64,000 nucleotides of DNA from Dehalococcoidia bacterium (GTDB lineage: Bacteria; Chloroflexota; Dehalococcoidia; Lucifugimonadales; CAZENU01): positions 3,519,392-3,583,391 of the forward strand of contig OZ220748.1 of NCBI GenBank assembly GCA_965117035.1, read 5' to 3'. Position 1 is the first letter of the stretch. Each line of letters opens with the position of its first letter. A model generated the notes under the pieces. It worked only from the letters and a program-made list of their open reading frames with translations, was not told where the DNA came from and ran no database searches. The position numbers and the translations under genes are program-made. This document shows positions 24,480-62,538 of the stretch, in pieces.

Positions 24480-26117
24480 TCACGGGCTTGCGGGGACCGC
24501 GCCCTGCTCCTTCATCTCGATCCACTCGCTGACGTTGAAGCCGCGCCGCCCGGCCTCCGTCTCCGCCTTCTGGAGCTCCTGCCACAGCTCGAAGTCGGCC
24601 ACTTCCACTGCCGGCTGGCGGACCGCTGCCGTCGACGGTTCCTCCATCCAGTCGAAGTAGCCGGTCACGTTCATGTACGCGATGACGGCTATCGCGAGGG
24701 CGGCTGTGCCTCCGATCAGCCACCGTTGCGCCGGGCGCGCGTCCCATAGCCACTGGAGCGCCAGCGCGATGAACAGGTAGAAGAAAGGTGCGGTCCCGAC
24801 CGCCCGCGCGCCGTCCGGCGTCGCGTTGGACAGCACCTGCACCGGGAACAGCATCATCAGGAAGAAGACCCACCAGAGCAGCGTGTGCCGCCACCGCAGT
24901 AAGGATACGGCCATGCCGAGCCAGAACAGCACCGCCGTCAGCCGGTCGAGGAAGCCTCGCCCTCCCGGGATGTAGCGCGCGTTCAGGCCGACGTGCGACG
25001 AGTCCGGGTCCAGCAGGATGAATCCCTGAACGTTGCGCCAGACCTGCACGGCCATGATCTCGACGGCGTTCTTGTCGCCGAACTGGACGCGGTTCTCCTC
25101 GTTCAGTATCCACACCGCCCTGGTACGGGTCGTATAGCCTTCCCAGTTGTCCACGGCGAAGTTCAGGTGGGGCAGGAACAGCAGGGCCGCGACGGCGACC
25201 ATGACGGCGTATCCGACAAGCACACGCCTGCGGTCCTCCCAGTGCAGCGCCAGCGCTATGGGCAGATAGGCCGCGAGGGCGACGATTACGAAACGCCCGC
25301 CGGGGTAGCCGTAGAGTCCCAGGGCCGCGAACAGCCCCGTCGCCGCGTACAGGGCCAGGTGCCGTCGTCGGAGCGCCGCCGTGAAGGCCAGCAGCGCCAG
25401 CAGGGCATACAGCGCGACGTGGATGTTGTACCACCCGGCCCGGGAGAAGTGCAGGTACCACAGGCTGGTCGCCAGCAGCAGCGTCGCGGCCAGCGCGGCC
25501 GGCCTGCCCAGTTCGTTCTGGCGCGCCACGAAGTAGAACGCCGGCAGCGACAGCGTGCTGAGAACGACGCTGGCCATCCGCATGCCCGCGATCGTGTCGC
25601 CGAACACGTCCATGAACCAGCCGATCAGGTACATGCTGAAGGCGGGCGACTGCGCCCAGTCCATCCCGAAGAAGCCGGGCCCGGCGTCGGCCATGATGCG
25701 GTAGACGACCTGCAGGTTGTCCGCCTCGTCGGCCAGCACGTTCGGCGGGACGTCCGTGAGCGAGACGAGCCGCAGCGCCAGCGCCAGGGCCACGATGGCG
25801 ACGAGCGCGACCGTCTCCCAGCCGGTGAGCCCGAGCGCGTGGAGGCGCGTCCGCACCGGCTCGAGCAAGTTCGATGCCGAGGCTATATGCGGTATGCGCG
25901 GCATCGCTGCGGGCGCGACAGCTCCACCGGGCTGCGGCGCAGCCGGCAGTGGCCCGGACTCCGCCAACGGCGTCCCGCACGCGTCGCAGAACCGGTGGCC
26001 GATGGGATTCGGGGTCGAACAGGAGTTGCAGGCGACGTCGGCCCGCAGGCCGCGCCCGCAATCGCCGCAGAACTTCGCCCGCGGCAGGTTCTCGTAGCTA
26101 CACCAGGGGCAGTCCAT
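24480..26117 (-). CDS. Membrane glycosyltransferase, GT-C fold (PMT/ArnT-like, GT39/GT83-type) with N-terminal double zinc ribbon
   Basis: N-terminal CPWC-x11-CGDC-x10-CNSC-x11-CDAC. At least 10 hydrophobic helices follow. The first extracytoplasmic loop carries the acidic motif LADEADN, as in GT-C enzymes. Confidence 0.75.
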   Translation of the reverse strand: MDCPWCSYENLPRAKFCGDCGRGLRADVACNSCSTPNPIGHRFCDACGTPLAESGPLPAAPQPGGAVAPAAMPRIPHIASASNLLEPVRTRLHALGLTGWETVALVAIVALALALRLVSLTDVPPNVLADEADNLQVVYRIMADAGPGFFGMDWAQSPAFSMYLIGWFMDVFGDTIAGMRMASVVLSTLSLPAFYFVARQNELGRPAALAATLLLATSLWYLHFSRAGWYNIHVALYALLALLAFTAALRRRHLALYAATGLFAALGLYGYPGGRFVIVALAAYLPIALALHWEDRRRVLVGYAVMVAVAALLFLPHLNFAVDNWEGYTTRTRAVWILNEENRVQFGDKNAVEIMAVQVWRNVQGFILLDPDSSHVGLNARYIPGGRGFLDRLTAVLFWLGMAVSLLRWRHTLLWWVFFLMMLFPVQVLSNATPDGARAVGTAPFFYLFIALALQWLWDARPAQRWLIGGTAALAIAVIAYMNVTGYFDWMEEPSTAAVRQPAVEVADFELWQELQKAETEAGRRGFNVSEWIEMKEQGAVPASP

Positions 26118-26333: not shown

Positions 26334-29300
26334 ATGGCATTCCTCAGGTCCGTACGACCGCTCTGGGGACTAACGGTCGTACTGGCTCTGGCTACGGCCG
26401 TCGCCTTCTCTGTCGTCTACGAGGCCCGCGGTCCCGACCGGGCCATCGACGCCCAATCCCCGGAGATCCGCATCGACTCCGTGAGTCCCGTGCCTCCCGC
26501 CTGCATCGTGTTGAGCTCGGATGTCGTCAGCCAACGGACGCTGACGATTACCGGCCGGAATCTGGCGGCCACGTCGGACACGAGGCTTCAGTTCCGGCTG
26601 GTGGGCAGCATAGACATCTCCATCCTATTCGGTCTGCAGGTGAACTGGGAGAGCGACACGCGCATCACGCTGGACATGGGCGAGATCAGGAGAAGCCTGT
26701 GGACCTTCAAGGTCATGAATATGCAGGTCCGGGTCACGGGGGAGAGGAATAAGCTCAACTCCAACTGGTCTGAGCGCTTCCTGGTCGTCAGGACCGCGGA
26801 CAGGTGCGAGGTGCAGGGGCCAACGCCGACGCCGACATGGGCGCCGGCCGAATTCCCCGCAAGGCCGGCCGTTCGCGGACTCGCGGGAGACCTCTGGGCG
26901 GACGTGATCCTCGGGAAGCCGGACTTCTCGCAGATAGTCCCCAAGAGCGTCGTTCCGTTCAAGGTGTTCAACCCCGGAGGCGTTGTCGTAGACCGCTCGA
27001 CCGATCCTGGCAGGGCGTACGTCTGGGACTCGGGCAACAGCCGTATCCTGGGCATCGATCTCGCGAAGTGCTACGACGGCCCCAGCCCATGCTCTGCCGA
27101 GATCGTGCTCGGCCAGCCATCCCTGTACGACCGTGGGGCCTGTAACCGGGACAGTGGCGTCCAGGGCTACCCGGCGCGGGCTACGGCCAGCGCCGAGACC
27201 CTGTGCGGCATGCCCGACTTCTCCCTTAGCCCGTGGGAGGCCCACAACTTCGTGACGATGGCGGTCGACAGCCGCGGCGCACTGTACGTTCCTGATTTTT
27301 CGAACAACAGGGTGTTGAAGTACAACAATCCCTTCGTCAGCGACTCCGTTGCCGACGCGGTATGGGGTCAAGCCGACTTCTCGGGCATGGACTGCAACCG
27401 CGGCGACTTCGGCCGGCCGACGTCCGAGACCATCTGCTTCGACTCGGTCACCAACAGGCTCGTGACCAACCTGCAGAGTGCGGGCGTAGAGGTCGATGAC
27501 GAGGGCAACGTGTGGGTAGCTGACACGGGCAATCACCGCGTTGTGCGTTTCTCGATGAGCTCCCTCACGGGCGCGGTCTCCAGGACCGCCAGCCTCGTCT
27601 TGGGCCAGCCGGACTTCGGGAGCGCCGAGCCCGGACGCGCCCTGAACAGGCTGTACGCGCCTTCGGCGGTCAGGATCGCTCCAGATGGCTCGGCGTACGT
27701 CGCCGATACGGGCAACAGCCGGGTGCTCGTCTTCAAGCCTCCATTCGAGTCCGGCATGGAGGCGGACTCCGAGTTCGGGTCGCAGTTGTACCATCCGACA
27801 TCGGTCGAATTCGATCCGGCCGGCCGCGGCGTGTGGGTCAACGACGCGGGGAACCGCATGGTTGAGCTGTGGGATATGGCGGGCACGTCGGTGTCGAAGG
27901 TGCTTGGGAAGGACTCCTATCGACCTGACCGAGCGTGCGGCAGACCGTTGGAGTCCCTGGCCGGCGCTCCGCACCTCTGTTACATCGCCGGAGGATTTGG
28001 GATCGACGGCAATGGGAATGTACTCGTTCCCGTGTTCCTCGCTACGGCTGACGTGATCCGGTTTGGGACCGCGGGAAGCGATCCAATCGGCCGCGCGGAC
28101 AAGCGCCTTTTCTTCCCGCCGCCGGACTCTAACTTCAAAGACCTCGAGAGCATACACTCCGCCCGTGGCGTCGCGGTCTGGAGAGACCAGCTCATAGTCT
28201 CCGACATCGCCAGGCTGATGTTCTGGAACGGGCTAGACACCCTGTCGAATGGCAGGCCAGCTGACGGCGTAGTAGGCGACGAGTTCACCTATCGGGACGG
28301 ACGCCCCTGGTGCTGCGGCAGGATCAAGGTGGACGCGGCCGGCCGACTCTGGGTCTTGTCTTTCGAGGGAAGAAAGTTCGTCGACGTCTATCAACTCCCA
28401 CTGACCGATGAATCCGTCCCGCTGTACACCGTGTGGACTGACGTCGGCGGGACCGTTCCGGTCTTGGGAGAGGACTCCGGGATACAGCTTGGCCCCGTGA
28501 TGTTCGGGGTCGCGCCGGTTGGGTCCGGGGAGTTCGTCTGGCTGAGCGATACGGACAATCATCGCGTGCTGCGCATCCGGGATCCCTTGACGAACCCGGT
28601 CGTGGACGTGGTCCTGGGACAGGAGAACGCCAGTGGGAACGAGTGCAACCGCGGCCGGTTCAAGGCAGCGGCCAGGACCTCGGTGGAGCTCCAGGCAAAC
28701 AGCGACGTGCTCTGTTTCCCGGGGGCGCTATCCATCGATCGGTTCGGCAATCTCTATGTGTCGGACCACGGGCTGGAAGTGAATGGAAACCTCCGTCTGC
28801 TGGTGTTCTCGCCTACGGCGATTCCGTCGACCAATTCGGAGGCGATATTCGCTCCGTTCGCGTCTAAAATATTCGTCCGTTCCGCTGTTGGCCGCCACAA
28901 CCTGTGGGCGGATCCTCAGGGGCGTGGAGCAGTATTTGGCGAACGCGATCTAACTCTGACGTCCGCCACATGGGAGGTTGCGTTCGACAGCACCAACAGG
29001 ATGGTAACGGGGTACAACGCCTATGTTGGCCCAAGGTTCGTTGGGGTATACGACGATCCTCTCGGCCCGGCCACACTGCCCGATGCCTTCCTCAACGACT
29101 TTGGATCAATGCCGTTCGCGGTAGCCTTCGACGACGACGACAACCTGTACGTCGGCGACATCAACCGCGCCAGGGTTCTCGTGTACCGCAATCCGTTCCA
29201 CAATCCGCCGCGGACCGCCGCGGCGCCGACTCCGGAGGCTGCGCCGCCTGTGCCCCAGTATCCGGCGACCATAGCGTCGGTCCATCCAGGCCCTCCATAT

Positions 29301-30167
29301 TGCGTGGTGCGTCGGTCTCAGCATCGCTACGAGAAGACCTTCGTCCTGGAGTTCGACGGCGACATCGGGGCGGGCGAGCATCTGGTCTTCCGCAGGGTCG
29401 TCGACGGCCACCGAGAAGGGCTCCCGCTCAACGACCGGAGCCAAGTCAGAAGGAGTGGGAATCGCATCACCGTCGACATGACACAGCTAGGGCCTCGTGC
29501 CTGGCGGGAGCGTCCGAGGCTGACGTTGACGGTACGAGTCGTCGACGGCGACTTCCGTCCGCTGTCGAACTGGTCGCCGGTGTTCCTGCTGGCCGACGAT
29601 GTCGAGACCTGCGGCGCTGCCCTGCCTACGCCCACCCCGACTCCGACGCAGACCCCGACACCAACCCACACACCGACGTCGACTCCGACCCCCACCCGAA
29701 CGCCTACGCCAAGCCCCACGCCTACGCCGACTCCCACGGCAACTATCACGCCTACCCCAACCCCCACCTCCACCCCCACGCCGACTCTGTCGCCAACGCC
29801 AATGCCCACGGCGACGTTGATGCCAACCCCAACGCCTACTCCAACCCCGACACCCAGCCCAACGGCGACACTCTCGCCTACGCCGCCCTCCACCGCGGCA
29901 TCGGAGCTGACTGCCACCGTCGCGCCCGGGACGACGCCGACGCCGCGTCCTGCGACGCCACCCACGCCGGAGTCCGCGGCGGTGCCACCGACCGCCGAGA
30001 TGCCGTCCGCACCCGAAGGCGGCGGCTGTACCGCGATCGCAGACGTACGACCCGGTGGCATCGAACTGAGCATGATGCTGCTACTGCTGTTGCCGGCCGG
30101 GCTCGCGGGGTGGAGGAGACGTCGCGGCCCGGTCACGTCGCCCAGGGATGGCGAACAGCGCCGATAA
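26334..30167 (+). CDS. Giant secreted/anchored NHL-repeat beta-propeller protein with Pro/Thr linkers and conserved C-terminal GGGC-TM-Arg tail (paralog 1)
   Basis: ATG at 26334 follows GGAGGT. There is an N-terminal signal anchor (PLWGLTVVLALATAVAF). About 10 NHL-like blades are present ([84 protein letters not shown]...). A ~125-aa PT linker leads to the tail [10 protein letters not shown]...[21 protein letters not shown]. Confidence 0.8.
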   Translation: MAFLRSVRPLWGLTVVLALATAVAFSVVYEARGPDRAIDAQSPEIRIDSVSPVPPACIVLSSDVVSQRTLTITGRNLAATSDTRLQFRLVGSIDISILFGLQVNWESDTRITLDMGEIRRSLWTFKVMNMQVRVTGERNKLNSNWSERFLVVRTADRCEVQGPTPTPTWAPAEFPARPAVRGLAGDLWADVILGKPDFSQIVPKSVVPFKVFNPGGVVVDRSTDPGRAYVWDSGNSRILGIDLAKCYDGPSPCSAEIVLGQPSLYDRGACNRDSGVQGYPARATASAETLCGMPDFSLSPWEAHNFVTMAVDSRGALYVPDFSNNRVLKYNNPFVSDSVADAVWGQADFSGMDCNRGDFGRPTSETICFDSVTNRLVTNLQSAGVEVDDEGNVWVADTGNHRVVRFSMSSLTGAVSRTASLVLGQPDFGSAEPGRALNRLYAPSAVRIAPDGSAYVADTGNSRVLVFKPPFESGMEADSEFGSQLYHPTSVEFDPAGRGVWVNDAGNRMVELWDMAGTSVSKVLGKDSYRPDRACGRPLESLAGAPHLCYIAGGFGIDGNGNVLVPVFLATADVIRFGTAGSDPIGRADKRLFFPPPDSNFKDLESIHSARGVAVWRDQLIVSDIARLMFWNGLDTLSNGRPADGVVGDEFTYRDGRPWCCGRIKVDAAGRLWVLSFEGRKFVDVYQLPLTDESVPLYTVWTDVGGTVPVLGEDSGIQLGPVMFGVAPVGSGEFVWLSDTDNHRVLRIRDPLTNPVVDVVLGQENASGNECNRGRFKAAARTSVELQANSDVLCFPGALSIDRFGNLYVSDHGLEVNGNLRLLVFSPTAIPSTNSEAIFAPFASKIFVRSAVGRHNLWADPQGRGAVFGERDLTLTSATWEVAFDSTNRMVTGYNAYVGPRFVGVYDDPLGPATLPDAFLNDFGSMPFAVAFDDDDNLYVGDINRARVLVYRNPFHNPPRTAAAPTPEAAPPVPQYPATIASVHPGPPYCVVRRSQHRYEKTFVLEFDGDIGAGEHLVFRRVVDGHREGLPLNDRSQVRRSGNRITVDMTQLGPRAWRERPRLTLTVRVVDGDFRPLSNWSPVFLLADDVETCGAALPTPTPTPTQTPTPTHTPTSTPTPTRTPTPSPTPTPTPTATITPTPTPTSTPTPTLSPTPMPTATLMPTPTPTPTPTPSPTATLSPTPPSTAASELTATVAPGTTPTPRPATPPTPESAAVPPTAEMPSAPEGGGCTAIADVRPGGIELSMMLLLLLPAGLAGWRRRRGPVTSPRDGEQRR

Positions 30168-30237
30168 AGGCCGGCGTCCGTGGGACGCGGCGGGTTACCT
30201 TGCGTATCGTTCTGTCGACGTTGACCGGGTCAAGCCT

Positions 30238-31527
30238 TCAGCCGGCGCGGGAGGCGTAGTGCAGCGCCACCTTCCGTATCGCCCTGGCGATGTCGAGGAT
30301 GTCTTCCTCGGTGAACGTGCTCAGGAATTGGATGCCGCCGACCTTCGGCAGCTCGCGCTCGATCACCGGCAGATGCAGCGCGTTGTAGTCGATGCGCCGC
30401 TTGCCGGTCTCGTCGACGAACGGGTACCCGGACTTGCCGTAGGTGCGCTCCTCGGCGAACACGGGGTAGCGGTATAGCGGCTTGCCCTGGATGTACGGGC
30501 CACCGCACAGGCCGATGCCCTCGGCCTGCATAGCCCGGCAGAACTGCTCGCAGTCGACTCCCATCTCCTCCTCGATTATCTTGAAGCCGTAGAACCAGTG
30601 CGTGCGCACGTTCCCTTCGCGCACGAGCTGGTGCCGGAAGCCGGGCAGCTCGTATGTCTCCTCGTCCAGGATCGCCGCCATTCTCCCCCTGTGCTCCTTG
30701 TACCACTGCCAGCGCTGGATCTGCGCCAGCCCGATCGCGGCCTGCAGATCGCTCATCGTGTGGAAGTCGCCTAGGAACGAGTAGCCGCGCTCCGAGCCTC
30801 TACGCTCGCTCGTCGGCCGCAGCGACTCCCGCAGCTCGTCGTCGTACTCCGACCCCTTGTGCGAGTGGCCCTTCGCGCGACGCGCCAGCGCCTCGTTGTT
30901 GGTGATGATCATGCCGCCCTGGCCGGTCGTCATCATCTTGCCGCCCAGCGAGAAGCACCCCATGTCGCCCATCGTGCCCACGAGCTGGCCCTTGTACTCG
31001 GCAAGGTGGGCCTGCGCGCAGTCCTCGATCACCGGCAGGTTGTGCCGACGGCCGATGTCCAGCACCGCGTCCATGTCGCATGGGTTGCCGAAGAGGTGGA
31101 CGACCAGTATCGCGCCCGTGCGGTCCGTGATCCGGCGCTCGATGTCCGCCGGGTCGGTGTTGAACGTGTCGCCATCCCAGTCGGCGAAGACCGGGATCAG
31201 GTTCTGGAGCAGGATGCCCTGGACGGTGCCGATGTCCGTCACCGGCGTCGTGATGATCTCGTCCCCGGGTTCGAGGTCGAGAGCGGCGACGGCCGAGTGC
31301 AGCGCCCCCGAGCCCGAGTCGGTCGCCAGCGCGTACTTGATGTCGTGCTTCTGCGCGAACTTGTCCTCGAACGCCTGGACCTTCTCCCCGGAGTTCCACC
31401 GGACCATCGCGTTCTGGACGACCTCGGTCACCTGCCGCAGGTCCTCCTCGCCGAAGAAGTGCTTGGAGCCGAAGGGCTTGGTGCGGACCGGCGTCCCGCC
31501 GTCGATTGCCAGGGTCTCGGTGGTCAT
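30238..31527 (-). CDS. DegT/DnrJ/EryC1/StrS-family PLP-dependent sugar aminotransferase
   Basis: ATG at 31527 (MTTETLAIDGGTP...) follows GGGGGAG. Family pattern DSGSGALH, IEDCAQAH, and the PLP-Lys segment CFSLGGKMMTTGQGG. Confidence 0.85.
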   Translation of the reverse strand: MTTETLAIDGGTPVRTKPFGSKHFFGEEDLRQVTEVVQNAMVRWNSGEKVQAFEDKFAQKHDIKYALATDSGSGALHSAVAALDLEPGDEIITTPVTDIGTVQGILLQNLIPVFADWDGDTFNTDPADIERRITDRTGAILVVHLFGNPCDMDAVLDIGRRHNLPVIEDCAQAHLAEYKGQLVGTMGDMGCFSLGGKMMTTGQGGMIITNNEALARRAKGHSHKGSEYDDELRESLRPTSERRGSERGYSFLGDFHTMSDLQAAIGLAQIQRWQWYKEHRGRMAAILDEETYELPGFRHQLVREGNVRTHWFYGFKIIEEEMGVDCEQFCRAMQAEGIGLCGGPYIQGKPLYRYPVFAEERTYGKSGYPFVDETGKRRIDYNALHLPVIERELPKVGGIQFLSTFTEEDILDIARAIRKVALHYASRAG

Positions 31528-31935
31528 GGCGTCTCCCCCAGGGTGTCGAGTGTTCGCCCGATGATACGCCCGCCCGTTCGCCTTGGCAACGGCGCTCGGC
31601 GGGATGGCCCTCGCCGGGAACCGCGTCTTTGGAGTCCACCGTCGGAGACCCTGCATACCTGGTCAATCCGCGCAGAGCCTGCCCCATGAAGACGGAGGCG
31701 GCAATCTTGGGGCCGTCGATGCGTGCGCCGCGTTCCCCTCAGCAACTTTGGACGCGAGGCCGCCACCTCTGCCCCGACGGCCGCCGCTCACGCAGCTTGG
31801 GGAGATGATACCATCGGACGCCTCAGACATGGACCGTCGGTCGCTTCCCTGCGGGGAACGCTTCCCATACGTGTCCGACGAGTCGATGCCCGTTTACCAG
31901 CCGCGGGTTGGCGTAACCGCCCAGAGGTGAGAGCC

Positions 31936-34900
31936 ATGCCGCAATTCAACCTGGACCGCCCGCTTTGGGGGCTGATGGTCTTGCTGGCTTTCGTATCGGC
32001 CGTCGCCCTCCTGTCGATCTTCGAGAGCCGTGGGTCCGACGCGGGTCTCAACGCCCAGTCGGGGTCGGAGTTCCCGGCCAGGCCGGCGGTGAGGGGAGTC
32101 CCTGGCGACCTCTGGGCTGACGTGATCCTCGGGAAGCCGGACTTCACGCAGACAGTGCCGAAGAGCGTTGTCCCGTTCAAGGTGTTCAACCCCGGTGGGG
32201 TTGTCGTGGACCGGTCGACCGATCCCGGCCGGGCGTATGTCTGGGACTCGGGCAACAGCCGGATTCTGGGTATCGATCTCGCCAAGTGCTATGAGAGTAC
32301 TGGGCCCTGCTCGGCCGATATTGTGCTGGGCCAGCCGTCGCTGTACGATCACGCGGCCTGCAACGGAGACAACGGCGTTCAGGACTATCCGTTTCGGGCA
32401 CTTGCCGGCGCCGAAACGCTATGCGGCAACCCCGACCACTCCCTCAGCCCGTGGGAAGCGCATATGTTTGTGACGATGGCGATCGACAGTCGCGGCGCCC
32501 TGTATGTCCCTGACTTTTCCAATCACAGGGTGCTGAAGTACAACAATCCCTTCGTCAGCGACGCCGTCGCCGACGCCGTGTGGGGACAGGCGGACTTCTC
32601 GGGCATCGAGTGCAACCGCGGGGACATCGGCCGGCCGACGGCCGAAACGCTCTGTTTCGACTCGGGCACCAACAGGCTCGCGACCAACCTGCAGAGCGTT
32701 GGCGTGGAGGTCGATGAGGAGGGAAACGTCTGGGTCGCGGACAGCGGCAATCACCGCATTCTTCGGTTCTCGATGAGCTCTCTGACGGGTGCGGTCTCCA
32801 GGAAAGCCAGCCTCGTCCTGGGCCAGGCTGACTTCGAGAGCGCCGAGCCCGGAAGGACCTTGGACAAGCTGTACGCGCCTTCGGCGGTGAGGTTCGCTCC
32901 CGATGGCTCGGCGTACGTTGCCGACACCGGCAACAACCGAGTCCTGGTCTTCAAGCCACCGTTCCAGTCCGGAATGGAGGCGGCCTTCGAGTTCGGGTCT
33001 CGACTGCACCATCCCACGTCGGTCGAAATCGACCCTGGCGGCCGCGGTGTATGGGTCAACGATGCGGGGAACTACATGGTCGAGCTGTGGGACGTGTCGG
33101 GTTCATCGGTCTTGAAGGTCCTCGGCAAGGACTCGTATCGGCCCGAGCGAGAGTGCTACAAGCCGCTTGAGTCGCTGCCCAGCAGTCCCCACATGTGTCC
33201 AATCGCCGGAGGCTTCGGGATCGACAGCCAGGGAAACGTCCTGATCCCCGTGTTCCTCCGCACCAATGACGTCATCCGCTTTACGACTGCCGGGCGCGCC
33301 CCGATCGGCCGCGCCGACAAGCGCCTGTTCTATCCGCCGGAGGACGCCAACTTCAAGGACCTCAAGGGGATACACTCCGCCCGCGGCGTAGCTGTCTGGA
33401 AGGACCAACTCGTCGTGTCCGACTTATTCCGGCTGATGTTTTGGAACGGGCTCGACATGCTATCGAACGGAAGACCGGCGGACGGCGTCGTTGGCGACGA
33501 AAATCAGGCCCGCGCCTGGTCGTGGTGCTGCGGCACGATCAAGGTGGACGCAGCAGGCCGCCTCTGGGTGTTGGCTTTCGAGGGACGGCGGTTCGTCGAC
33601 GTCTATCAGCTTCCGCTGACCGAAACATCAGTCCCGCTGCACACGATGTGGACAGATACAGGCATGACTCTTCCGGTACTGGGAGAGGACTCCCGGATCA
33701 TGCTCGGCCCCAGGATGTTCGGGATTGCGCCAGTTGGGTCCGGAGAGTTCGTCTGGCTGAGCGATGCTGACAATCATCGCGTGCTGCGCATCCGGGACCC
33801 CCTGACGCACCCGGTCGTGGATGTGATCCTGGGACAGGAGGACGCCAGCGGGAACGAGTGCAACCGCGGCCGGTTCGAGGCGGGGGCCAGGAACTCGGTC
33901 GGAGACCGGTCGAATGGTGATGTGCTCTGTTACCCTGGAGCGCTGTCCATCGACCGCCTTGGAAACCTCTACGTATCGGACCATTCGCTGGAAGTGAATG
34001 GGAACTTCCGCCTGCTCGTCTTCTCGGGGGCGGCACTCCCGACGACGAATTCGGAGGTCATATACGCCCCTCTGGCATCAAAGATATTCGTCCGTTCCGC
34101 CGAGGGTCGGAACAACCTATGGGCGGATCCCTTGGAGCGCGGAGCGGTAATCGGGGAGCAGGAGCGGACGCTTCTGATGGCGACCTGGGAGGTCGCGTTC
34201 GACAGCGCCAACAGGATGGTAGCGGGGTACAACGCGTACCTGGCCCCCAGGTTCGTAGGTGTCTACGACGACCCTCTTGGCCCGGACACGCTCCCGAATG
34301 CCTACCTGAACGACTTCGGCTCGTCGCCGTTCGCGATGACCTTTGACGACGACGACAACCTGTACGTCGGTGACCTCAACCGCGCCCGGGTCCTCGTATA
34401 CCACAACCCGTTTGGAAGTCCGCCGAGAACATCGCCCGTGCCAACCCCGGATACTCCGCCGCCGGTACCCGAGCACCCCATCACCATAACGTCGTTCCAT
34501 CCCGGCCCTCCATTTTGCGTGGTGCGCCGGTCTCAGCACCGGTACGAGCAGACCCTTGACCTGGAGATCGAAGGCGACATCGGGGGAGGCGGTCTTGGGT
34601 TGGTGTTTCGCATGGTGACCGATGGCCGCCGAGAACGAATCTCGCTCAACGACCGTAACCAGGTTCGAACGAGGGGAAATAGCATCACCGTCGACATGAG
34701 ACACTTCGGGCCTCGTGTCTGGCGGGAGCGCCCCAAGGTGACGATGATGGTCCGAATCGTCGACAGCGAATCCCTGCCGCTATCGAACTGGTCGCCGGCG
34801 TTCCTGCTCGCCGACGACGTCGAGACCTGCGGCGTTGCCCTGCCAACTCTGACGCCGACCCCGACGCCGACCTTCACGCCATCGCCGACGCCGACACCGA

Positions 34901-35346
34901 CCTTCACGCCATCGCCGACGCCAACGCCGACCCTTACGCCTACGCCGACACCGACGCCCACGCCGACCCTCACACCAACACAGACGCCCACGCCGACCTT
35001 CACACCGACACAGACACCTACGCCGACCCTGTCGCTGACTCCCACGCCGACCGCCACCGTCACGCCGTCACCGACCCTGACCCCGACCGTCACCCCGTCA
35101 CCGACCCCGATGTCGACTCACACCCCAACCCCGGTGGTAGATCCCGATTCCGTGACGGCCGTCGGGCCGACCGGCGAGGCGCCGTCCGGTGCCGAGGGCG
35201 GTGGCTGTACGGCGATAGCAGACGGTCGACCTGCGGGCACGGAGCTGAGCATGATGCTGCTCCTGCTCCTCCCGGCCGGACTTGCGGGCTGGATGAGGCG
35301 GCGAGGCCCGTTCACGGCGCCAGAGGATGGCGCGCGGTACCGGTGA
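31936..35346 (+). CDS. Giant secreted/anchored NHL-repeat beta-propeller protein (paralog 2)
   Basis: ATG at 31936. It is collinear with paralog 1 from [10 protein letters not shown] onward, with roughly three quarters of residues identical by eye. It has the same blades, the same [18 protein letters not shown] module, a ~100-aa PT linker, and the tail [10 protein letters not shown]...[21 protein letters not shown]. Confidence 0.8.
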
Positions 35347-35472
35347 TGCGCGAGCGCCCACCGGATGGCCACCCGACCGGGACGACCGCGCGAGGTTCCG
35401 GTGTGCACGTGTCTTGCCTCCTTGCCCCTTGACTGGAGAGGACTGAGGAGGGGTCGAACAGGAAACGGCGCC

Positions 35473-44109: not shown

Positions 44110-45588
44110 CTACCTGAACTGGAAAGAGTAGAGCTTGCAGTTCTTGAAGTAGAACCGCAGCTTGACGGCCCTGCCCGCGAACTCCCCGAGGTCGGCATCG
44201 CCTCCCCACGAGATGACCCGTGACTGGCCCGACTCGGTCACGGGGTCGCAGTCGTCGAAGGTGTAGCCCTCGATCGTCTCGTGGTTTGGCTCGAGCAGCT
44301 CGACCCGTAGCTCCGCGGCCTCGGCCCCCCACTGCTGCAGCGCGGTCGCGACGTTCACGTGGAGCCGCGAGCCGGCGAAGCCGAACGACCGTGTCACCAT
44401 CTCGCTGTAGGGCGCGACTCTCGCCGGGCCCCAGTTGCCGGGCGGGCCCTTGGCGCCGTCGAGCGACACGAAGCCGTCCAGCGGCAGCGTCGCCAGACCC
44501 ACGGCCGCAGTTGCCCTGTCGCCGAGCGCCAGAAGCGTCTCCGGCGATCTCCAGTTGGTGGCCTCGTAGAAGAACAGGATGCGGTCTTCCTGCACGATGG
44601 GCGTGCGCGCGTAGATCGACGTGCAGTCGAACTCCCACCGGGCCCCGCGCTGGATGAACGGCTGGCGGTACTGCCGGTCGTAGTGGATGCCGTCGCGGCT
44701 GAAGACGACCTCCGGATGGTGGGTGGTGTTGGTGGTGCGGAAGATCCACAGCAGGCCTACGTACATGCCCTCGTAGGTCATCGTCGGCATCGAGTAGAAC
44801 TCGGTGTCCGCGGAGTCCAGCTCGTCGGGGACGATGATCGTCTCCGGCTCGCTCCAGTGGACCATGTCGGGGCTCTCGGCGCGGCCGATGAGCCGCTTGC
44901 CCAGCGGAGCGCGCCGGTGGAGGCAGTTCTCCATGTGGACGGCGTACACCTCGCGTATCGGGTCCCAGCCCATGAAGTTCGTGGGCCCCCAGCGGCCCAC
45001 CCGCGGCGAGGTGTCGATGACGGGGTTGCCGTCGTACGGCAACCAGGTGAAGGCGTCGTGCGAGAAGTACAGGTCGAAGACCATCCCGGGTGTGGACGTG
45101 GAGCCCGTGCGGACGAGTCCCTTGTAGCGCTTCGAGGGGTCTTCCTCGTGGGTGTCCTTGAAGAAGTAGGTCGTCTTGTCGGGGCCGTAGGGGAGCATGT
45201 GGGACCGGGGCAGCAGGTTGTTGTCCTTCGACCCCTGGTACTCGACGAGGCCGAGGTTGGGCCGCTCCCAGTGCACACCGTCCTCGGAGACGGCCAGGCA
45301 CGCCACCTCCGCGCTGTCCGCCTCGCCGGTGACGATGATCTCGCCGTCGCCCTGGCGGGCCTCGTTAACGCGGCCGTCGTACCACATCTTGTAGACGCCG
45401 TCGTTGTCGTCGAAGACGATGCGGCGCGGCCGGACGTCGTTGCCCTCCCACGGCCGCTCGGGCTTCAGGACAGGGTTGTTCTCGACCTTTTCGGCCGGGT
45501 TCAACACCTGCCTGGTGTTGGTCATGCTCTCGATGAGGTAGTCGTCGACGAAGAGCTGTTTTCGCGAACCGATTTCTATCAGTGCCAC
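44110..45588 (-). CDS. Predicted glycoside-hydrolase-like beta-propeller protein with C-terminal beta-sandwich
   Basis: 492 aa. N-terminal KQLFVDDYLIE, then NPVLKP..WEG..V, and C-terminal GRAVKLRFYFKNCKLYSFQF. This pattern recurs in uncharacterised GH32/43-clan-like proteins. The assignment is from memory only. Confidence 0.5.
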   Translation of the reverse strand: MALIEIGSRKQLFVDDYLIESMTNTRQVLNPAEKVENNPVLKPERPWEGNDVRPRRIVFDDNDGVYKMWYDGRVNEARQGDGEIIVTGEADSAEVACLAVSEDGVHWERPNLGLVEYQGSKDNNLLPRSHMLPYGPDKTTYFFKDTHEEDPSKRYKGLVRTGSTSTPGMVFDLYFSHDAFTWLPYDGNPVIDTSPRVGRWGPTNFMGWDPIREVYAVHMENCLHRRAPLGKRLIGRAESPDMVHWSEPETIIVPDELDSADTEFYSMPTMTYEGMYVGLLWIFRTTNTTHHPEVVFSRDGIHYDRQYRQPFIQRGARWEFDCTSIYARTPIVQEDRILFFYEATNWRSPETLLALGDRATAAVGLATLPLDGFVSLDGAKGPPGNWGPARVAPYSEMVTRSFGFAGSRLHVNVATALQQWGAEAAELRVELLEPNHETIEGYTFDDCDPVTESGQSRVISWGGDADLGEFAGRAVKLRFYFKNCKLYSFQFR

Positions 45589-45632
45589 GGCGAAGTACCT
45601 CCGGCCTTGGGGACACGGCCTCTTGGGGATTC

Positions 45633-45707
45633 TGGTCGGGGTGGCCGGGATCGAACCGGCGACCTCCTGGTCCCAAACCAGGCGCGCTCCCGCTGCGCCA
45701 CACCCCG
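45633..45707 (-). tRNA. tRNA-Pro (anticodon UGG), CCA encoded
   Basis: Hand-folded cloverleaf: acceptor CGGGGTG/CACCCCG, D stem GCGC/GCGC, anticodon stem CCTGG/CCAGG with loop TTTGGGA, T arm GCCGG-TTCGATC-CCGGC, discriminator A, CCA. Confidence 0.9.
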
Positions 45708-45785
45708 AGCCCGCAACGATGATAAGTGCCCCGCGCCGCGGTTACAATCCCATGCTGAGATGTAGCGTACAGGCGTCGGACAGCC

Positions 45786-47711: not shown

Positions 47712-48173
47712 CTACGCGCCCTCTTCGGCGGCGTACTTGGACGGGCACTTCACGATCACGTTGTGGCTCTGGAAGACGCCGTCCGGCGTGTAGCTGCCCT
47801 CAAGGATGATCTCCGAGTGCTCGTTGAAGAACAGCTCGGGGAGAACGCCGTCGTGGGTCGCCGAGACGGCCGTCGCGCCGTCCGTGAGGGCGAAGCGCGC
47901 CAGCGTCGAGTTGGCGTCGCGGCTGAAGGAGCCATCGACCAGGTTGCCGCTAACGCGGACGGTCTCGCCCGCCGCCGTCGGCCCGCGGTCGTGGAGCTCG
48001 CCGACGGTGTAGTAGTAGACCGTGGCGCTCTGGAAGGCCATGAAGGCGAAGTAGCCCATCGCGGCCAGGACCACCACGGCGCCGACGGTCAGCTTGACCC
48101 GGCCGGAGAACCAGCCTCCGCTTTCCCGGTCGTCGACCGGCCCTACGGCCATCGTTTCAGTCGCGTTCGCCAT
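47712..48173 (-). CDS. ccmE: Cytochrome c maturation heme chaperone CcmE, CxxxY variant
   Basis: N-terminal TM anchor, OB-fold body (VRVSGNLVDGS...LPELFFNEHSEIILEG), and the C-terminal VIVKCPSKY where the canonical protein has HxxxY. Confidence 0.85.
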   Translation of the reverse strand: MANATETMAVGPVDDRESGGWFSGRVKLTVGAVVVLAAMGYFAFMAFQSATVYYYTVGELHDRGPTAAGETVRVSGNLVDGSFSRDANSTLARFALTDGATAVSATHDGVLPELFFNEHSEIILEGSYTPDGVFQSHNVIVKCPSKYAAEEGA

Positions 48174-48174
48174 G

Positions 48175-48762
48175 TCAGTCGGTGTCGCCGTTCCTGCCGA
48201 TCGCGGCCCTGAGCGCCTCTATCTCCTCCCGCATCGCCCGCTGCCGCCTCGACATCATGAACACGTAGACGAAGAACGCCGCCCACGTGACCGTGTACAC
48301 CGCGAACAGGTAGTCGAGGTTCGGACCCGGGTCCGCGTCGACGATGGTCACGGTCGCGCTCTCGCCGCCCGAGCGTATTATAGCGTCCCGCGCGTCCGAC
48401 AGCCTGACGCTGAAGGTCTCCGTCGGCTCGTCGGCCGTATCGTCGACGATCACCAGCACTATCGCGGTCGAGGTGGCCCCGGCCGGGATGGTGGCGACCC
48501 CGCTCGCGCCCGTGTAGTCGCCGGGCGCCGTCGCCGTGCCGTCCTCGGTCGCGTAGCGCACGCTGACCTCGCGGTCTGAGGCCCTGTCGAGCGATACGAC
48601 GAGCCTGGCCTCGCGCGCCTTCTCCCGCACCGAAGCGCTGCCGATGGAGACCTGGGGCCCGTCGTTCTCCTGGGCGAACGCGATGCCGGCCAGTGCGAGC
48701 GCCGACAGTGCTATCGACCCCGCCACGGCCGCTGCCACGCGCAGGGCGGCGCTAGCCGACAT
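48175..48762 (-). CDS. ccmD: Signal peptide + Calx-beta domain fused to a CcmD-like heme-exporter TM segment
   Basis: The N-terminal signal is AGSIALSALALAGIAFA. The Calx-beta pattern is VSVRYATEDGTATAPGDYTGASGVATIPAGATSTAIVLVIVDDTADEPTETFSVRLS...ATVTIVDAD. The C-terminal YLFAVYTVTWAAFFVYVFMMSRRQRAMREEIEAL resembles CcmD. The gene sits between ccmC and ccmE. Confidence 0.65.
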   Translation of the reverse strand: MSASAALRVAAAVAGSIALSALALAGIAFAQENDGPQVSIGSASVREKAREARLVVSLDRASDREVSVRYATEDGTATAPGDYTGASGVATIPAGATSTAIVLVIVDDTADEPTETFSVRLSDARDAIIRSGGESATVTIVDADPGPNLDYLFAVYTVTWAAFFVYVFMMSRRQRAMREEIEALRAAIGRNGDTD

Positions 48763-49468
48763 GTCGGTACAGCCCGTCTATGTCCCTCTCCGCCTGCCTG
48801 AGGCGGTACCTGTCGACCAGCAGGTAGGCGAAGAGCAGGGCGAAGGCCACGATGGAGAGCAGAACGACCACGGCCATGTCGCCGTCGAGGTCCATGTTGA
48901 GCACGATGGTGTCCGGGTGGGCCCTGCGGTCTGAGACCTTGGTGGAGACCCAGTTCATTCCGGCGGCGACGACGCCGATGACGGCGACGACGGCCCTGAA
49001 CCGGTTGCCCTGGGACCCCTTCGGGCCGTAGTTGTCCAGCATCAGGTAAGCCGCCAGGATGAACCAGACGATCAGCGTCAGCGTCAGCTTCAACTCCCAC
49101 GTCCACCAGACACCCTGCACCGGCTTGATCCAGAGCACGCCGGTGACCAGGCTGAGCGTCGCGAAGAGCAGGCCCACCTCGGCCGAGGCGTAGGCCAGGC
49201 TGTCCCACCGCTGCCTGTTCTTCTTGACCACCAGGTAGGCGATGCTGGCTCCGGCCGGGATGACGATGGAGCTGAGCCCCAGCATCGAAATGGGCACGTG
49301 GAAGTAGAAGATGCGCTGCGAGAGGCCGAGGTTGACCTCCGTAGGCACCCACATGAAGACGAGATAGAGCGTGAGACCCATGAGTGCGGCGGCCAGGACG
49401 AGAGTGCCGTCCATGACGATGCCGCGGCCGAACGGCCGAGGCGGTCCCGATGTCTCAGTCAGCGCCAT
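48752..49468 (-). CDS. ccmC: Heme exporter protein CcmC
   Basis: Six TM helices. FYFHVP (conserved His) and the Trp-rich loop IKPVQGVWWTWELKLT are present. It overlaps the downstream gene by 11 nt. Confidence 0.85.
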   Translation of the reverse strand: MALTETSGPPRPFGRGIVMDGTLVLAAALMGLTLYLVFMWVPTEVNLGLSQRIFYFHVPISMLGLSSIVIPAGASIAYLVVKKNRQRWDSLAYASAEVGLLFATLSLVTGVLWIKPVQGVWWTWELKLTLTLIVWFILAAYLMLDNYGPKGSQGNRFRAVVAVIGVVAAGMNWVSTKVSDRRAHPDTIVLNMDLDGDMAVVVLLSIVAFALLFAYLLVDRYRLRQAERDIDGLYRHVG

Positions 49469-49527
49469 CTGTGCAATATATCACAATCGATTTCGGGACG
49501 TGCCCGGTTGCAGTTGGCCGCTCCGGG

Positions 49528-60106: not shown

Positions 60107-62332
60107 CTACCAGGGCGGCGGAGGCCAGGTGCCCAGGCGGCGCTTGCCGCGGGCGTTGGGGCGGTTCTTCCACCACCGGCGCAGCAGCGCCGCAGACGTG
60201 ATGAACGCGACGATCGTCGCGATGATGCTCCAGCCGAGCACCGCACGCGTCGTGCGCGACAGCGGGGCCGGCGTAGGCGTACGCTCTACCGTCCCGAGCT
60301 GCTGGTTGAGCGCCGTGAACACCCCGCCGCCCCAGGTGCCCGCGTAGAGGACCTGGTCGGTGCCGAAGGCCGGGGACAGCGCGACGTCGAGCACCTCGGT
60401 GACCGCCAGCCCCAGGTTGACCTGCTGCCACGTGTCGCCCGCGTCGGTCGACCGGTAGATGCCTCCGCCCTCGGTGCCGACGAACAGCGTCGAGTCGACC
60501 GGGAAGGCGGGTGAAACGGCAATGGCGACGACGACCGGGTCGCCGAGGCCGCGTATCCTCTGGAACCAGGTGTCTCCGCCGTCGGTGGACCGGAGCACGC
60601 CGTCCTGGGTGGTGCCCGAGAATATCGTCTTGTCGTTGACGAAGTCGGGCGAGATGCTCAGGAGGGAGGTCTGGTTCTGGCCCGCGGTCGGGATGACCCG
60701 GACAGGCTCGCTCGAAGCCTCCCAGGAGTCACCCCCGTCGGTCGACCTGAACGACCCCTGGGACACGGTGCCCACGAACATGATCCGGTCGTTGGCGAAG
60801 TCGGGCGACAGCGCGATCGACCAGACGAACTCGCTGGTCAGACCGCCGCTCTGGATCTTCTGCCACGCATCGCCCCTGTCCGTGGACTTGAAGAGCCCGC
60901 TGCCCGTGGTCCCGGCGAAGACGGTCGAGTCGGAATCGAACGTCGGAGACAGCTTGACGACGTTGACGATGTCGGCCGTGATGCCGACCGATTTGCTCTG
61001 CCACGACTCCGCGCCGTCGTCCGAGCGGAAAACGCCCTCCGACGTCGCGGCGAATATGGTGGGATCGTCCGGGTAGGTGGGGGACAGCGCGATGCTGTAG
61101 ACCGTCACGTGCGGCAGGCCGCGGTTGACCTGCGTCCACGACTTGCCTCCGTCCTGGGACTTGAGGACTCCGCCGCCGGTGGTGCTGGCGAAGAGGGTCT
61201 GGTCGGTTGGGAAGTTCGGCGAGAGCTCGAGCTCGCGTACGAAGGTGCTCGTGCCCTGGGTGGCCTGGAGCCAGGAGAAGCCGCCGTCGGTGGACCGGAA
61301 GACGCCGCCAACCCCGATCCCGGCGAAGATGGTGGAGTCGAACTCGAACGTCGGGGAGATGGCGAGGGCGCGGACGGGGTCGTGGATCGCCCTTCTGCCC
61401 TCGTCCACCTGCTGCCAGGTGAACCCGCCGTCGACAGTCCTGTATACGCTGCCCGATATGCCGGCGAACAGGGTCTTGTCGGTCGCGAAAGTGGCCGACA
61501 GGGCGAGGGCGCGGGCGTTCGACCGCGACGGGTCGGGGTCGACGCGCTCCCACGAGCCGCCGTCGTCCGTCGTCCTGAGGATGCCGCCGCCGACTGTGCC
61601 GACGTAGATCGTCCTGTCGGTCGCGTAGGCGGGGGAGAAGGCGATCTCCAGCACGTTGGTCAGCGGGTTGCCCAGGTCGACCGCGCGCCAATTATCGCCG
61701 CCGTCGTCCGAGCGAAAGAGCTCCCCGCCCCACGCTCCCGCCATCACGATCGAGTCCCGCCCGTAGTCGGAGGACATGCCAAGCGCGACGATGCGGTTGT
61801 CCGTCAGGCCGGTGTTGACCTGCGTCCACGTCTCGCCCGCGTCCGTCGATCGGAAGATGCCCTCGCCGAACGCGCCGGCGAACACGGTACGGCCGGTCTC
61901 GAAGTCTGGTGAGACGGCGAGCGCCTCTACCGCGGCGGTCATGAGGACGGGGTCCTCGGCCTGCGTCCACGACCCGCCGCCGTCCTCCGACTTGAAGACG
62001 CCGTCGCCGGTCGTGCCGGCGAAGAGCGTCTGGTCGGATGCGTAGGCGGGCGATACGACCAGGGCGGGGACGAATCGGCTGGTGAGGCCCTTGTTCGCGC
62101 GGTCCCAGGAGTCGCCGCGGTCGGTCGACTTGAGCACTCCGCCCGATATGCCGGCGAACACGGTGCCGTCCTGCGAGAAGTCGGGAGAGATGGCCATGTC
62201 CCAGACGAAGCCGCTTCGCGGCCCGAGGGACTCCCATCCCACGGGCGCCGGCTCCTGGGCCTGCGCGTGGCCCGCGCCCGCCGCGATGGACGCAACAAGG
62301 GCGGCGGCCGCGAGCAGGAGTTTTCGTATCAT
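60107..62332 (-). CDS. BNR/Asp-box (Ycf48/sortilin-like) multi-blade beta-propeller protein with signal peptide and C-terminal TM anchor
   Basis: Signal peptide ...AGAGHAQA. 13 units of a ~45-aa repeat, each containing S-x-D-x-G-x-(S/T)-W (STDRGDSW, SEDGGGSW, STDAGETW ...). The C-terminal helix VLGWSIIATIVAFITSAALL is followed by RRWWKNRPNARGKRR. Confidence 0.75.
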   Translation of the reverse strand: MIRKLLLAAAALVASIAAGAGHAQAQEPAPVGWESLGPRSGFVWDMAISPDFSQDGTVFAGISGGVLKSTDRGDSWDRANKGLTSRFVPALVVSPAYASDQTLFAGTTGDGVFKSEDGGGSWTQAEDPVLMTAAVEALAVSPDFETGRTVFAGAFGEGIFRSTDAGETWTQVNTGLTDNRIVALGMSSDYGRDSIVMAGAWGGELFRSDDGGDNWRAVDLGNPLTNVLEIAFSPAYATDRTIYVGTVGGGILRTTDDGGSWERVDPDPSRSNARALALSATFATDKTLFAGISGSVYRTVDGGFTWQQVDEGRRAIHDPVRALAISPTFEFDSTIFAGIGVGGVFRSTDGGFSWLQATQGTSTFVRELELSPNFPTDQTLFASTTGGGVLKSQDGGKSWTQVNRGLPHVTVYSIALSPTYPDDPTIFAATSEGVFRSDDGAESWQSKSVGITADIVNVVKLSPTFDSDSTVFAGTTGSGLFKSTDRGDAWQKIQSGGLTSEFVWSIALSPDFANDRIMFVGTVSQGSFRSTDGGDSWEASSEPVRVIPTAGQNQTSLLSISPDFVNDKTIFSGTTQDGVLRSTDGGDTWFQRIRGLGDPVVVAIAVSPAFPVDSTLFVGTEGGGIYRSTDAGDTWQQVNLGLAVTEVLDVALSPAFGTDQVLYAGTWGGGVFTALNQQLGTVERTPTPAPLSRTTRAVLGWSIIATIVAFITSAALLRRWWKNRPNARGKRRLGTWPPPPW

Positions 62333-62395
62333 TGGTTGCCCTTGGTCCGGAGGGTGTGCGGAGCGAAGACGGGGGAGCGGAATGGCGATATGTCC

Positions 62396-62424
62396 ATCAT
62401 ACTTGTTTCGGGGAAGTTGTGCAA
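62396..62424 (-). promoter_or_regulatory. Sigma-70-like promoter for the BNR-repeat gene
   Basis: The minus strand reads TTGCAC-17 nt-TATGAT in a locally AT-rich patch, about 60 nt upstream of ATG 62332. Confidence 0.45.
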
Positions 62425-62538
62425 AATTTCACAGGCAGGCGCTTCCGATTCGGCATGGCGGCATCCCCCGGTGCATGATCGACGAGGCGCCAGCTGCGCT
62501 CGGGGGTCGCGCACGGCGGACGTGGGAACGCGGGAGCG

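Follow-up and report, generated by a model that had tools for sequence, protein, structure and literature searches.

Introduction

Do the two giant surface proteins that lie almost side by side in a Dehalococcoidia genome end in a sorting signal that is cut and modified after export, or in a plain membrane anchor? The stretch in question is a piece of 64,000 nucleotides from contig OZ220748.1 (hereafter the window), and the two genes, named here paralog 1 and paralog 2, encode NHL-repeat proteins whose C-termini share a tail made of the motif EGGGC, a Leu-rich transmembrane (TM) helix and an Arg cluster. A first-pass annotation had quoted both tails and had described a tripartite layout of motif, TM helix and basic cluster after a low-complexity linker; translation of 30015-30170 and 35194-35349 indeed gives both peptides, each followed by a stop codon, and the layout is real. 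The tail is conserved in a distinctive pattern, selection acts on it, it resembles a known class of sorting signals with a central Cys, and its class is linked to a myxosortase-family gene in another lineage. We read the NHL tail as a Chloroflexota variant of this Cys-type, myxosortase-class signal, a reading to which we give about half of our confidence; processing is the part that we infer, given that neither the window nor any of six related neighbourhoods yielded an enzyme gene and that in Dehalococcoidia the tail was seen on the NHL family only.

Cys-containing tripartite signals have been described as MYXO-, JDVT-, Synerg- and CGP-CTERM, and the enzymes that belong to them are the CPBP/Rce1-like myxosortases (10.1101/2023.06.07.544157; PMC11980579). 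The myxosortase MrtX has been shown to cut MYXO-CTERM in a Cys-dependent manner, in E. coli too, and MrtX with its substrate TraA is the only pair for which Cys-dependent removal of the helix and Arg part has been demonstrated (PMC11980579). Chloroflexota are not mentioned in the Haft preprint (10.1101/2023.06.07.544157), and no account of such a sorting signal in this phylum was found in the literature.

Conservation and Selection of the Tail

Nei-Gojobori counts between paralogs 1 and 2 give 17.5 synonymous and 5.5 non-synonymous differences over the 37 codons of the tail core, from GGGC to RRRR, which corresponds to a dS of 1.05, a dN of 0.072 and an omega (dN/dS) of 0.07. The synonymous codon differences on which the first-pass annotation had based its argument for selection (ctgctactgctgttg versus ctgctcctgctcctc) are present, and the synonymous excess in the tail as a whole upholds that selection acts on the peptide, the high dS at the same time excluding a recent gene conversion. 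By region, omega amounts to 0.03 in the TM helix, 0.18 in the NHL body, 0.52 in the N-terminal hydrophobic segment and 1.06 in the 13 residues that follow the Arg cluster, and the value of the tail core falls within the lowest 9-14% of equal-size windows of the NHL body. The constraint on the tail and above all on its helix exceeds the need of mere hydrophobic anchoring, for which the N-terminal helix provides the comparison. The 13-residue extension is unconstrained and many homologues lack it, terminating at RRRR, so that the conserved unit stops at the Arg cluster.

The same picture emerges among the homologues, which as far as they are named belong to metagenome-assembled genomes (MAGs) of Dehalococcoidia and Chloroflexota. 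Among the best 120 homologues, 36 carry the Cys-type tail and about 45 a plain helix with RRRR and no Cys; the remaining ones are unanchored, fused to LRR or TPR domains, or truncated. In an alignment of 23 diverse Cys-type tails there are almost no indels, the Cys and a Pro in the middle of the helix are invariant, and G7, L28, L29 and R39-41 are kept in at least 90%, with the 11 residues between Cys and helix diverging freely. The geometry G-x-C-x21-P-x7-RRR is fixed across the 36 homologues from Chloroflexota MAGs, and the slightly shorter pattern G-x-C-x21-P-x7-RR is found in 36 of 45 tails. A hidden Markov model (HMM) of the tail gives 27-73 bits to Cys-type tails and at most 4.3 bits to plain tails of TM helix and RRRR. 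When the passenger domains are placed on a rough neighbour-joining tree, Cys-type tails form one large clade and are in addition scattered among clades with plain or no anchors; such interspersion indicates that the tail is exchanged independently of its passenger, as an exchangeable module.

A plain anchor is also found within the window, on a BNR/sortilin-Vps10-like protein of 773 aa (60110-62428, minus strand), which ends in a C-terminal helix and basic cluster after a short TPTP stretch and has no Cys motif. Plain and Cys-type C-terminal anchors are thus both used in the same genome.

Resemblance to Known Cys-type Signals

At the level of the class, all elements of a Cys-type tripartite protein are present: a motif with invariant Cys, a TM helix, an Arg cluster near the C-terminus and a hydrophobic segment at the N-terminus. 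The first-pass annotation had considered the signature close to MYXO-CTERM and at the same time not assignable. The second part stands insofar as the full-length proteins receive no assignment from any curated model; the tail is no orphan, however, since it fits the Cys-type tripartite class with its known CPBP/Rce1-like enzymes, a family that had been overlooked there.

The curated models of NCBIfam release 20 place the tails near this class and below its members. JDVT-CTERM (NF033191, cutoff 27 bits) is the sole model matched by the full proteins, with 21.2 and 9.6 bits. When the tails are scanned in isolation, tail 1 reaches 27.7-28.8 bits, a marginal pass, and tail 2 remains at 14.4. A match to an existing sorting model had been named in the first-pass annotation as what would overturn its claim, and the score of isolated tail 1 touches on this; the features that define JDVT-CTERM are nevertheless absent. 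MYXO-CTERM (TIGR03901, cutoff 20) gives 7.1-8.2 bits to the window tails, with a best E of 5e-4 among the 23 aligned tails, and GlyGly-CTERM (TIGR03501, cutoff 15.5), which has its Gly-Gly motif right where the helix starts, gives 12.7-13.6 bits, matching the helix and Arg part only. More distant full-length homologues match no CTERM model at E <=1.

How far weak matches of this kind can be trusted was seen from 23 Cys-less plain tails taken as control. The 23 Cys-type tails match MYXO-CTERM in 18 cases, JDVT-CTERM in eight (E <=10, best E 8e-7) and Synerg-CTERM in four (best E 0.0088). The controls match MYXO-CTERM in 13 of 23 and LPXTG in 18 of 23 cases as well as many other sorting models, all over the helix and Arg part only, and hence weak matches to short sorting models are not diagnostic. 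The list of the top 25 families for the control tails contains neither JDVT-CTERM nor Synerg-CTERM. For the same reason the weak matches to MYXO-CTERM, GlyGly-CTERM and Heimdall-CTERM were dropped as evidence, TM helix and RRR being sufficient to produce them; GVDTG-CTERM matches of plain tails were likewise set aside, as they lie below the cutoff and cover the helix and Arg part only.

TraA's MYXO-CTERM peptide, TraA being the M. xanthus substrate of MrtX (PMC11980579), and window tail 1 are identical at 19 of 42 aligned positions (E 4e-7), in line with the MYXO-CTERM resemblance claimed earlier, and both have the elements C-x3-A-D-x2-P-x-G and LLLL-x-AGL in common. Against shuffles that preserve three zones of the tail, tail 1 reaches a p of 0.0005 for this likeness and tail 2 one of 0.004.

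A Second Passenger Family Linked to a Myxosortase-family Protease

A tie to an enzyme comes from another protein family. An exhaustive search of 1.84 billion representative proteins with the tail HMM returned 13 matches at E <=0.001, most of them fragments of the NHL family; one, P0130, is unrelated to the NHL proteins and carries a tail of the same class (35.5 bits). It consists of a signal peptide followed by an Asp/Gly-rich region without any Pfam domain, and against the NHL tail HMM its homologues P0135-P0138 and P0140 reach 22-29 bits. Tails of this family read GGGC, a spacer of 12-13 residues, LAYLLxLL[AT]P and x7-RRR, and in a joint alignment with the NHL tails G7, C9, L29, P31 and R39 are invariant. 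What the two families share is therefore the GGGC, the spacer, the Leu-rich stretch with its Pro and the x7-RRR; they differ in the passenger, small and unrelated in the P0130 family, in the protease-headed gene cluster around it, in a GC content of 0.59-0.60 and in a helix that starts with Y instead of M.

The P0130-family gene belongs to a conserved six-gene cluster, seen in three loci (L024, 169-6277; L028, 3694-9918; L029, 1-5908). At its head, L024 and L028 have a divergently transcribed PF02517 (CPBP) gene, and the L029 contig ends 35 N-terminal codons into the same gene. Both complete proteases pass NF040914 (Mrt_core), the model of the 'myxosortase family intramembrane protease', with 113 and 117 bits against a cutoff of 100, stay below the equivalog cutoffs of MrtP, MrtC, MrtX, MrtS and MrtJ, and carry the motifs EExxxR, FxxxH and HxxxN. 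The cluster looks like a self-contained sorting system for one target that has no NCBIfam equivalog name. This linkage is the same in kind as that by which MrtJ was assigned to JDVT-CTERM, and it ties the tail class to the myxosortase family.

Directly after the CPBP gene of this cluster comes a gene for a PMT/TPR O-mannosyltransferase-like protein. A homologous PMT-like glycosyltransferase in the NHL and P0130 systems was considered and was rejected, because BLASTP finds no similarity between the two; a parallel at superfamily level remains. As further members the cluster contains three small secreted proteins that are paralogous to one another, a protein of 437 aa that weakly matches a PDIAV-lipoprotein model, the D/G-rich protein with the Cys tail and a 234-aa protein.

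Proposed Processing and Its Alternatives

Taken together, the tail may be read as follows. The NHL giant would be exported by Sec through its N-terminal hydrophobic segment, and the Leu-rich C-terminal helix with RRRR would arrest its transfer and retain it in the cytoplasmic membrane, the NHL propellers standing outside on a Pro/Thr-rich, probably glycosylated, stalk; this much is suggested by the sequence. All later steps are drawn from the MrtX/TraA analogy (PMC11980579) and from the gene linkage of the second family. The invariant Cys, located 11 residues outside the helix, would be modified, most likely by lipidation. The candidate enzyme, a CPBP/Rce1-like glutamic intramembrane protease from the myxosortase family whose gene would lie elsewhere in the genome, would recognise the helix with its Pro at Cys+22. 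By analogy with MYXO-CTERM (PMC11980579), the Cys of tail 1 is the predicted modification site and the candidate protease would cut just after it, leaving the mature protein anchored by its new C-terminus.

Several results weigh against this reading, and the first of them is the narrow distribution of the tail. A degenerate DNA pattern of the tail, built by hand and strict, matches only the two tails in the window and nothing in 100 shuffles; in 185,579 species genomes, one per species, it gives 13 matches, eight of which are real, and all eight are NHL giants of 1000-1580 aa in Dehalococcoidia MAGs, one per genome. The same pattern in JGI metagenomes gives four matches by chance and no real one. 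True tails score 50-70 bits to an HMM of homologue tails, and in 256 kb of related Dehalococcoidia DNA no further open reading frame (ORF) carries a Cys-type tail, the next ORF scoring 8 bits; more divergent tails would score below the thresholds used. A word-index search with the tail alone returned a mis-called fragment of 63 aa and missed known identical tails, and is uninformative on distribution. The usual mark of a sorting signal is that unrelated proteins share it, and in the Dehalococcoidia data covered the tail is confined to one family.

The second difficulty concerns the enzyme. Among the 42 ORFs of the 64-kb window, compared with Pfam and with all multi-TM ORFs accounted for, there is no CPBP, sortase, rhomboid or exosortase gene, no multi-TM ORF is rhomboid-like, and tblastn of the window with the myxosortase-family CPBP of L024 gives nothing; the earlier statement that the window has no sortase, exosortase or rhombosortase thus holds. 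Nor was a CPBP, sortase, rhomboid or exosortase gene found in six related neighbourhoods (L001, L002, L003, L021, L022 and L023), and in none of the seven does a CPBP (PF02517) of the MrtJ type adjoin the NHL gene. Systems with one target per genome usually have an adjoining enzyme gene (Haft preprint, 10.1101/2023.06.07.544157), and the NHL loci, contrary to this, have none.

The evidence for the class has limits as well. The full-length proteins are assigned by no curated model, and the weak MYXO-CTERM matches come from Cys-less controls too (13 of 23). The TraA likeness is limited to the sub-clade of the window, more diverged Cys-type tails not being significant, and since it was spotted before it was tested it counts as supporting evidence only. 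The second family sits on contigs that may come from another taxon, and the transfer of its evidence to Dehalococcoidia rests on a tail similarity of 22-35 bits. Moreover, in the published pathway the last step is type II secretion across an outer membrane, which a monoderm Chloroflexota cell would not have.

The main rival takes the tail as a permanent C-terminal TM anchor that is never processed, in which Cys and Pro serve the protein itself, the Cys in a juxtamembrane disulfide or in S-acylation and the Pro as a kink for packing, oligomerisation or signalling. We regard it as a serious possibility, although an unlikely one. Such an anchor would agree with the restriction to one family in Dehalococcoidia at one or two copies per genome, with the failure to find a processing enzyme in seven neighbourhoods, with close homologues that work with a plain anchor of TM helix and RRRR, and with the plain Cys-less anchor of the window protein at 60110-62428. 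It sits poorly with the spacing of Cys, Pro and Arg, which is fixed across proteins 50-60% identical although the spacer sequence is free, and which resembles the ruler of an enzyme more than a packing interface. It also leaves aside that a small D/G-rich protein of no relation to the NHL family, encoded in a cluster with a myxosortase-family protease, ends in this tail too, that the tail resembles JDVT-CTERM and the TraA peptide, and that tail types are exchanged like modules.

Quite improbable in our judgement is a signal that is processed by something other than a CPBP protease, be it a rhomboid-like, an archaeosortase-like or a Chloroflexota-specific membrane enzyme, perhaps together with a membrane glycosyltransferase that combines a double zinc ribbon with a PMT_2 domain (DZR-PMT_2). 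In its boldest form this would be an undescribed C-terminal pathway of Dehalococcoidia, a monoderm-specific system in which a non-myxosortase enzyme, again perhaps with DZR-PMT_2, would read the tail, the Cys would be glycosylated or linked to a lipid and the helix removed; we consider this form to be just as improbable. Several intramembrane protease families classically require a Pro in the middle of the helix, which fits such an enzyme, as does the lack of a CPBP gene near any Dehalococcoidia copy examined. In the window, L021 and L022 the NHL gene has the DZR-PMT_2 gene upstream of it in divergent orientation, and the CPBP gene of the second family directly precedes a PMT/TPR gene. However, the two PMT-like proteins have no detectable sequence similarity, L002, L003 and L023 have no glycosyltransferase neighbour, and O-glycosylation of the linker explains a PMT_2 protein beside a Pro/Thr-rich protein more simply. 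Furthermore, all described Cys-type tripartite signals are linked to CPBP (10.1101/2023.06.07.544157).

That the tails are ordinary members of JDVT-CTERM or MYXO-CTERM with nothing new about them is very unlikely: the marginal pass of isolated tail 1, the 18 weak MYXO-CTERM matches and the likeness to the TraA peptide point that way, but the JDVT-CTERM scores of both full proteins and of tail 2 lie under the cutoff, those for MYXO-CTERM are far from 20 bits and are matched by Cys-less controls, distant homologues match no CTERM model, the JDVT DP motif, the adjoining MrtJ gene and the Pseudomonadota host are all absent, and MYXO-CTERM is defined without the helix Pro that is invariant here.

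The Two NHL Genes and Their Neighbourhood

The coordinates of the tail, its elements and the surrounding genes are compiled in Table 1. Both NHL genes sit on one contig of 3.79 Mb (NCBI, ENA) and have a common layout: a basic and hydrophobic segment at the N-terminus, NHL beta-propeller repeats over about 900 residues, a Cys-bounded membrane-proximal domain, a Pro/Thr-rich linker of about 120-130 aa and, directly after it, the tail. The Pfam NHL scores are 75 bits for paralog 1, which also matches TEN_NHL, and 85 bits for paralog 2. In paralog 1 an extra Ig-like domain stands between the N-terminal signal/anchor and the propellers, and paralog 2 is without it; the linker of paralog 1 is probably a glycosylated stalk.

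Table 1. Position of the tails, the NHL genes and adjoining genes in the window.
Feature	Position	Strand	Remarks
DZR + PMT_2 (GT-C) membrane glycosyltransferase	24480..26117	-	Divergent from paralog 1; Pfam PMT_2 and DZR; weak Agl23/ArnT matches
Paralog 1	26334..30167	+	1277-aa NHL-repeat surface protein; database gene call P0006
Pro/Thr-rich low-complexity linker, paralog 1	29622..30014	+	Omega 0.23; many indels
Tail core, paralog 1	30015..30125	+	EGGGC, 11-residue spacer, helix, Arg cluster; 62 bits to tail HMM; omega 0.07
Cys codon TGT, tail 1	30027..30029	+	Cys invariant in 23/23 and 13/13 aligned tails
Leu-rich TM helix, tail 1	30060..30113	+	Invariant Pro at 30093-30095 (Cys+22); omega 0.03
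Arg cluster RRRR, tail 1	30114..30125	+	Predicted cytoplasmic stop-transfer element; R39-R41 kept in at least 90%
13-residue extension and stop codon, tail 1	30126..30167	+	Omega 1.06; outside the conserved signal
DegT/DnrJ/EryC1 sugar aminotransferase	30238..31656	-	Between the two paralogs; directly downstream of the single NHL gene in syntenic L021
Paralog 2	31936..35346	+	1136-aa NHL-repeat surface protein; database gene call P0002
Pro/Thr-rich linker, paralog 2	34840..35193	+	
Tail core, paralog 2	35194..35304	+	EGGGC (Cys 35206-35208), spacer, helix (Pro 35272-35274), MRRR; 61 bits to tail HMM

The extra domain of paralog 1 (26463-26840, residues ~44-170) is covered by no Pfam family and repeats, in diverged form, the membrane-proximal domain (30% identity, E 3e-8); the two are Cys-bounded and share the motifs SV-P-PP-C, IT-DM and SNWS. 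The window has a GC content of 65-69%, and the GC content at third codon positions (GC3) of the two NHL genes is 0.78-0.79 against ~0.90-0.93 in their neighbours, the regional GC falling to 0.65; foreign origin, repeat content or different expression could account for it.

In the syntenic locus L021 (10001-15175) one NHL gene is followed by DegT, and in the window (26334-35346) a second NHL copy is inserted after DegT, so that this is a lineage-specific duplication; L001 has two tail-bearing copies in tandem. With a dS of ~0.7-1 between the paralogs, the duplication in the window is old. Where the enzyme was sought through a conserved neighbourhood, the DZR-PMT_2 gene proved to be the sole recurring neighbour, present in three of seven neighbourhoods: in the window, in L021 (8120-9757) and in the otherwise non-syntenic L022 (7743-9371), and not in L002, L003 and L023. 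For O-glycosylation of the Pro/Thr linker its product is a good candidate, which does not imply a role in the sorting step. Besides the DegT aminotransferase gene, NAD-epimerase genes are found near this locus.

Two further features of the window lie apart from the NHL genes. A conserved ORF of 490-540 aa with high GC3 and no Pfam match (44110-45741, minus strand) adjoins an ECF sigma factor gene and is syntenic in L021 (21887-23365). In a cytochrome c maturation cluster (47712-49480, minus strand), a small Calx-beta domain protein (48175-48777) separates CcmE from a CcmC-like cytochrome c assembly gene, and an insert of this kind is unusual.

Implications and Comparison with Known Systems

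Myxosortase-type sorting, for which Myxococcus alone has provided experimental proof, is predicted in a few diderm lineages, in Synergistota and in Thermococcales. Should the tail be a signal of this class, the Cys type would extend to Chloroflexota, where it would act on giant NHL surface proteins of uncultured soil Dehalococcoidia; type II secretion would then not be the end point, and a C-terminal lipid anchor on a single membrane would be the more likely one. The rule G-x-C-x21-P-x7-RRR and the seed alignment can be used for a new annotation model, and the second family with its adjoining Mrt_core protease constitutes a testable pair of substrate and enzyme. Homologues with either Cys-type or plain anchors amount to a natural experiment that is suited to phylogenetic profiling for the enzyme.

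Among the comparable systems are PGF-CTERM with archaeosortase A and LPXTG with sortase A. Their general logic is alike, in that surface proteins of single-membrane cells have Thr/Pro-rich glycosylated linkers and end in a motif, a TM helix and a basic cluster; however, their motifs and enzyme families are others, the window tails have neither a PGF nor an LPXTG motif, and weak matches to the LPXTG model come only from Cys-less tails, over the TM helix and RRR. Synerg-CTERM (TIGR04564), which belongs to MrtS of Synergistota, resembles the window class in combining an invariant Cys with an invariant Pro in a Leu-rich helix stretch, but it is described as shorter, belongs to another phylum and is weakly matched by only four of the 23 tails.

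JDVT-CTERM, the substrate of MrtJ in beta- and gamma-proteobacteria, is the best-scoring curated model, and it agrees with the window tails in having one Cys only, a helix rich in Leu, very few copies in each genome and, in the sub-clade of the window, a D and a P between Cys and helix. The positions of the latter differ: JDVT-CTERM has a nearly invariant DP nine residues past the Cys, whereas in the window tails D stands at +5 and P at +8, neither being kept in other tails of the class. In 16 of 17 JDVT cases a CPBP gene adjoins, in contrast to none in the seven neighbourhoods here, and JDVT passengers are diverse and hosted by Pseudomonadota, as opposed to one family in another phylum.

MYXO-CTERM, with MrtX, MrtC and MrtP of Myxococcota and Bradymonadales, departs from the window class in several respects. 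It often has GCGC, the window tails a single Cys; it is described without Pro or charged residues in the helix (10.1101/2023.06.07.544157), whereas Pro is invariant at Cys+22 here; its carriers number dozens per genome in Myxococcota against one or two in Dehalococcoidia MAGs; no myxosortase was located near the window tails, in the window or the six neighbourhoods; and the Chloroflexota host is presumably monoderm, so that there would be no type II secretion step. In their architecture the two nevertheless agree: both have a Gly-rich motif with an invariant Cys, a TM helix and an Arg cluster, set after a disordered linker on Sec-exported surface proteins, and in both the length from Cys to Arg is ~30 residues.

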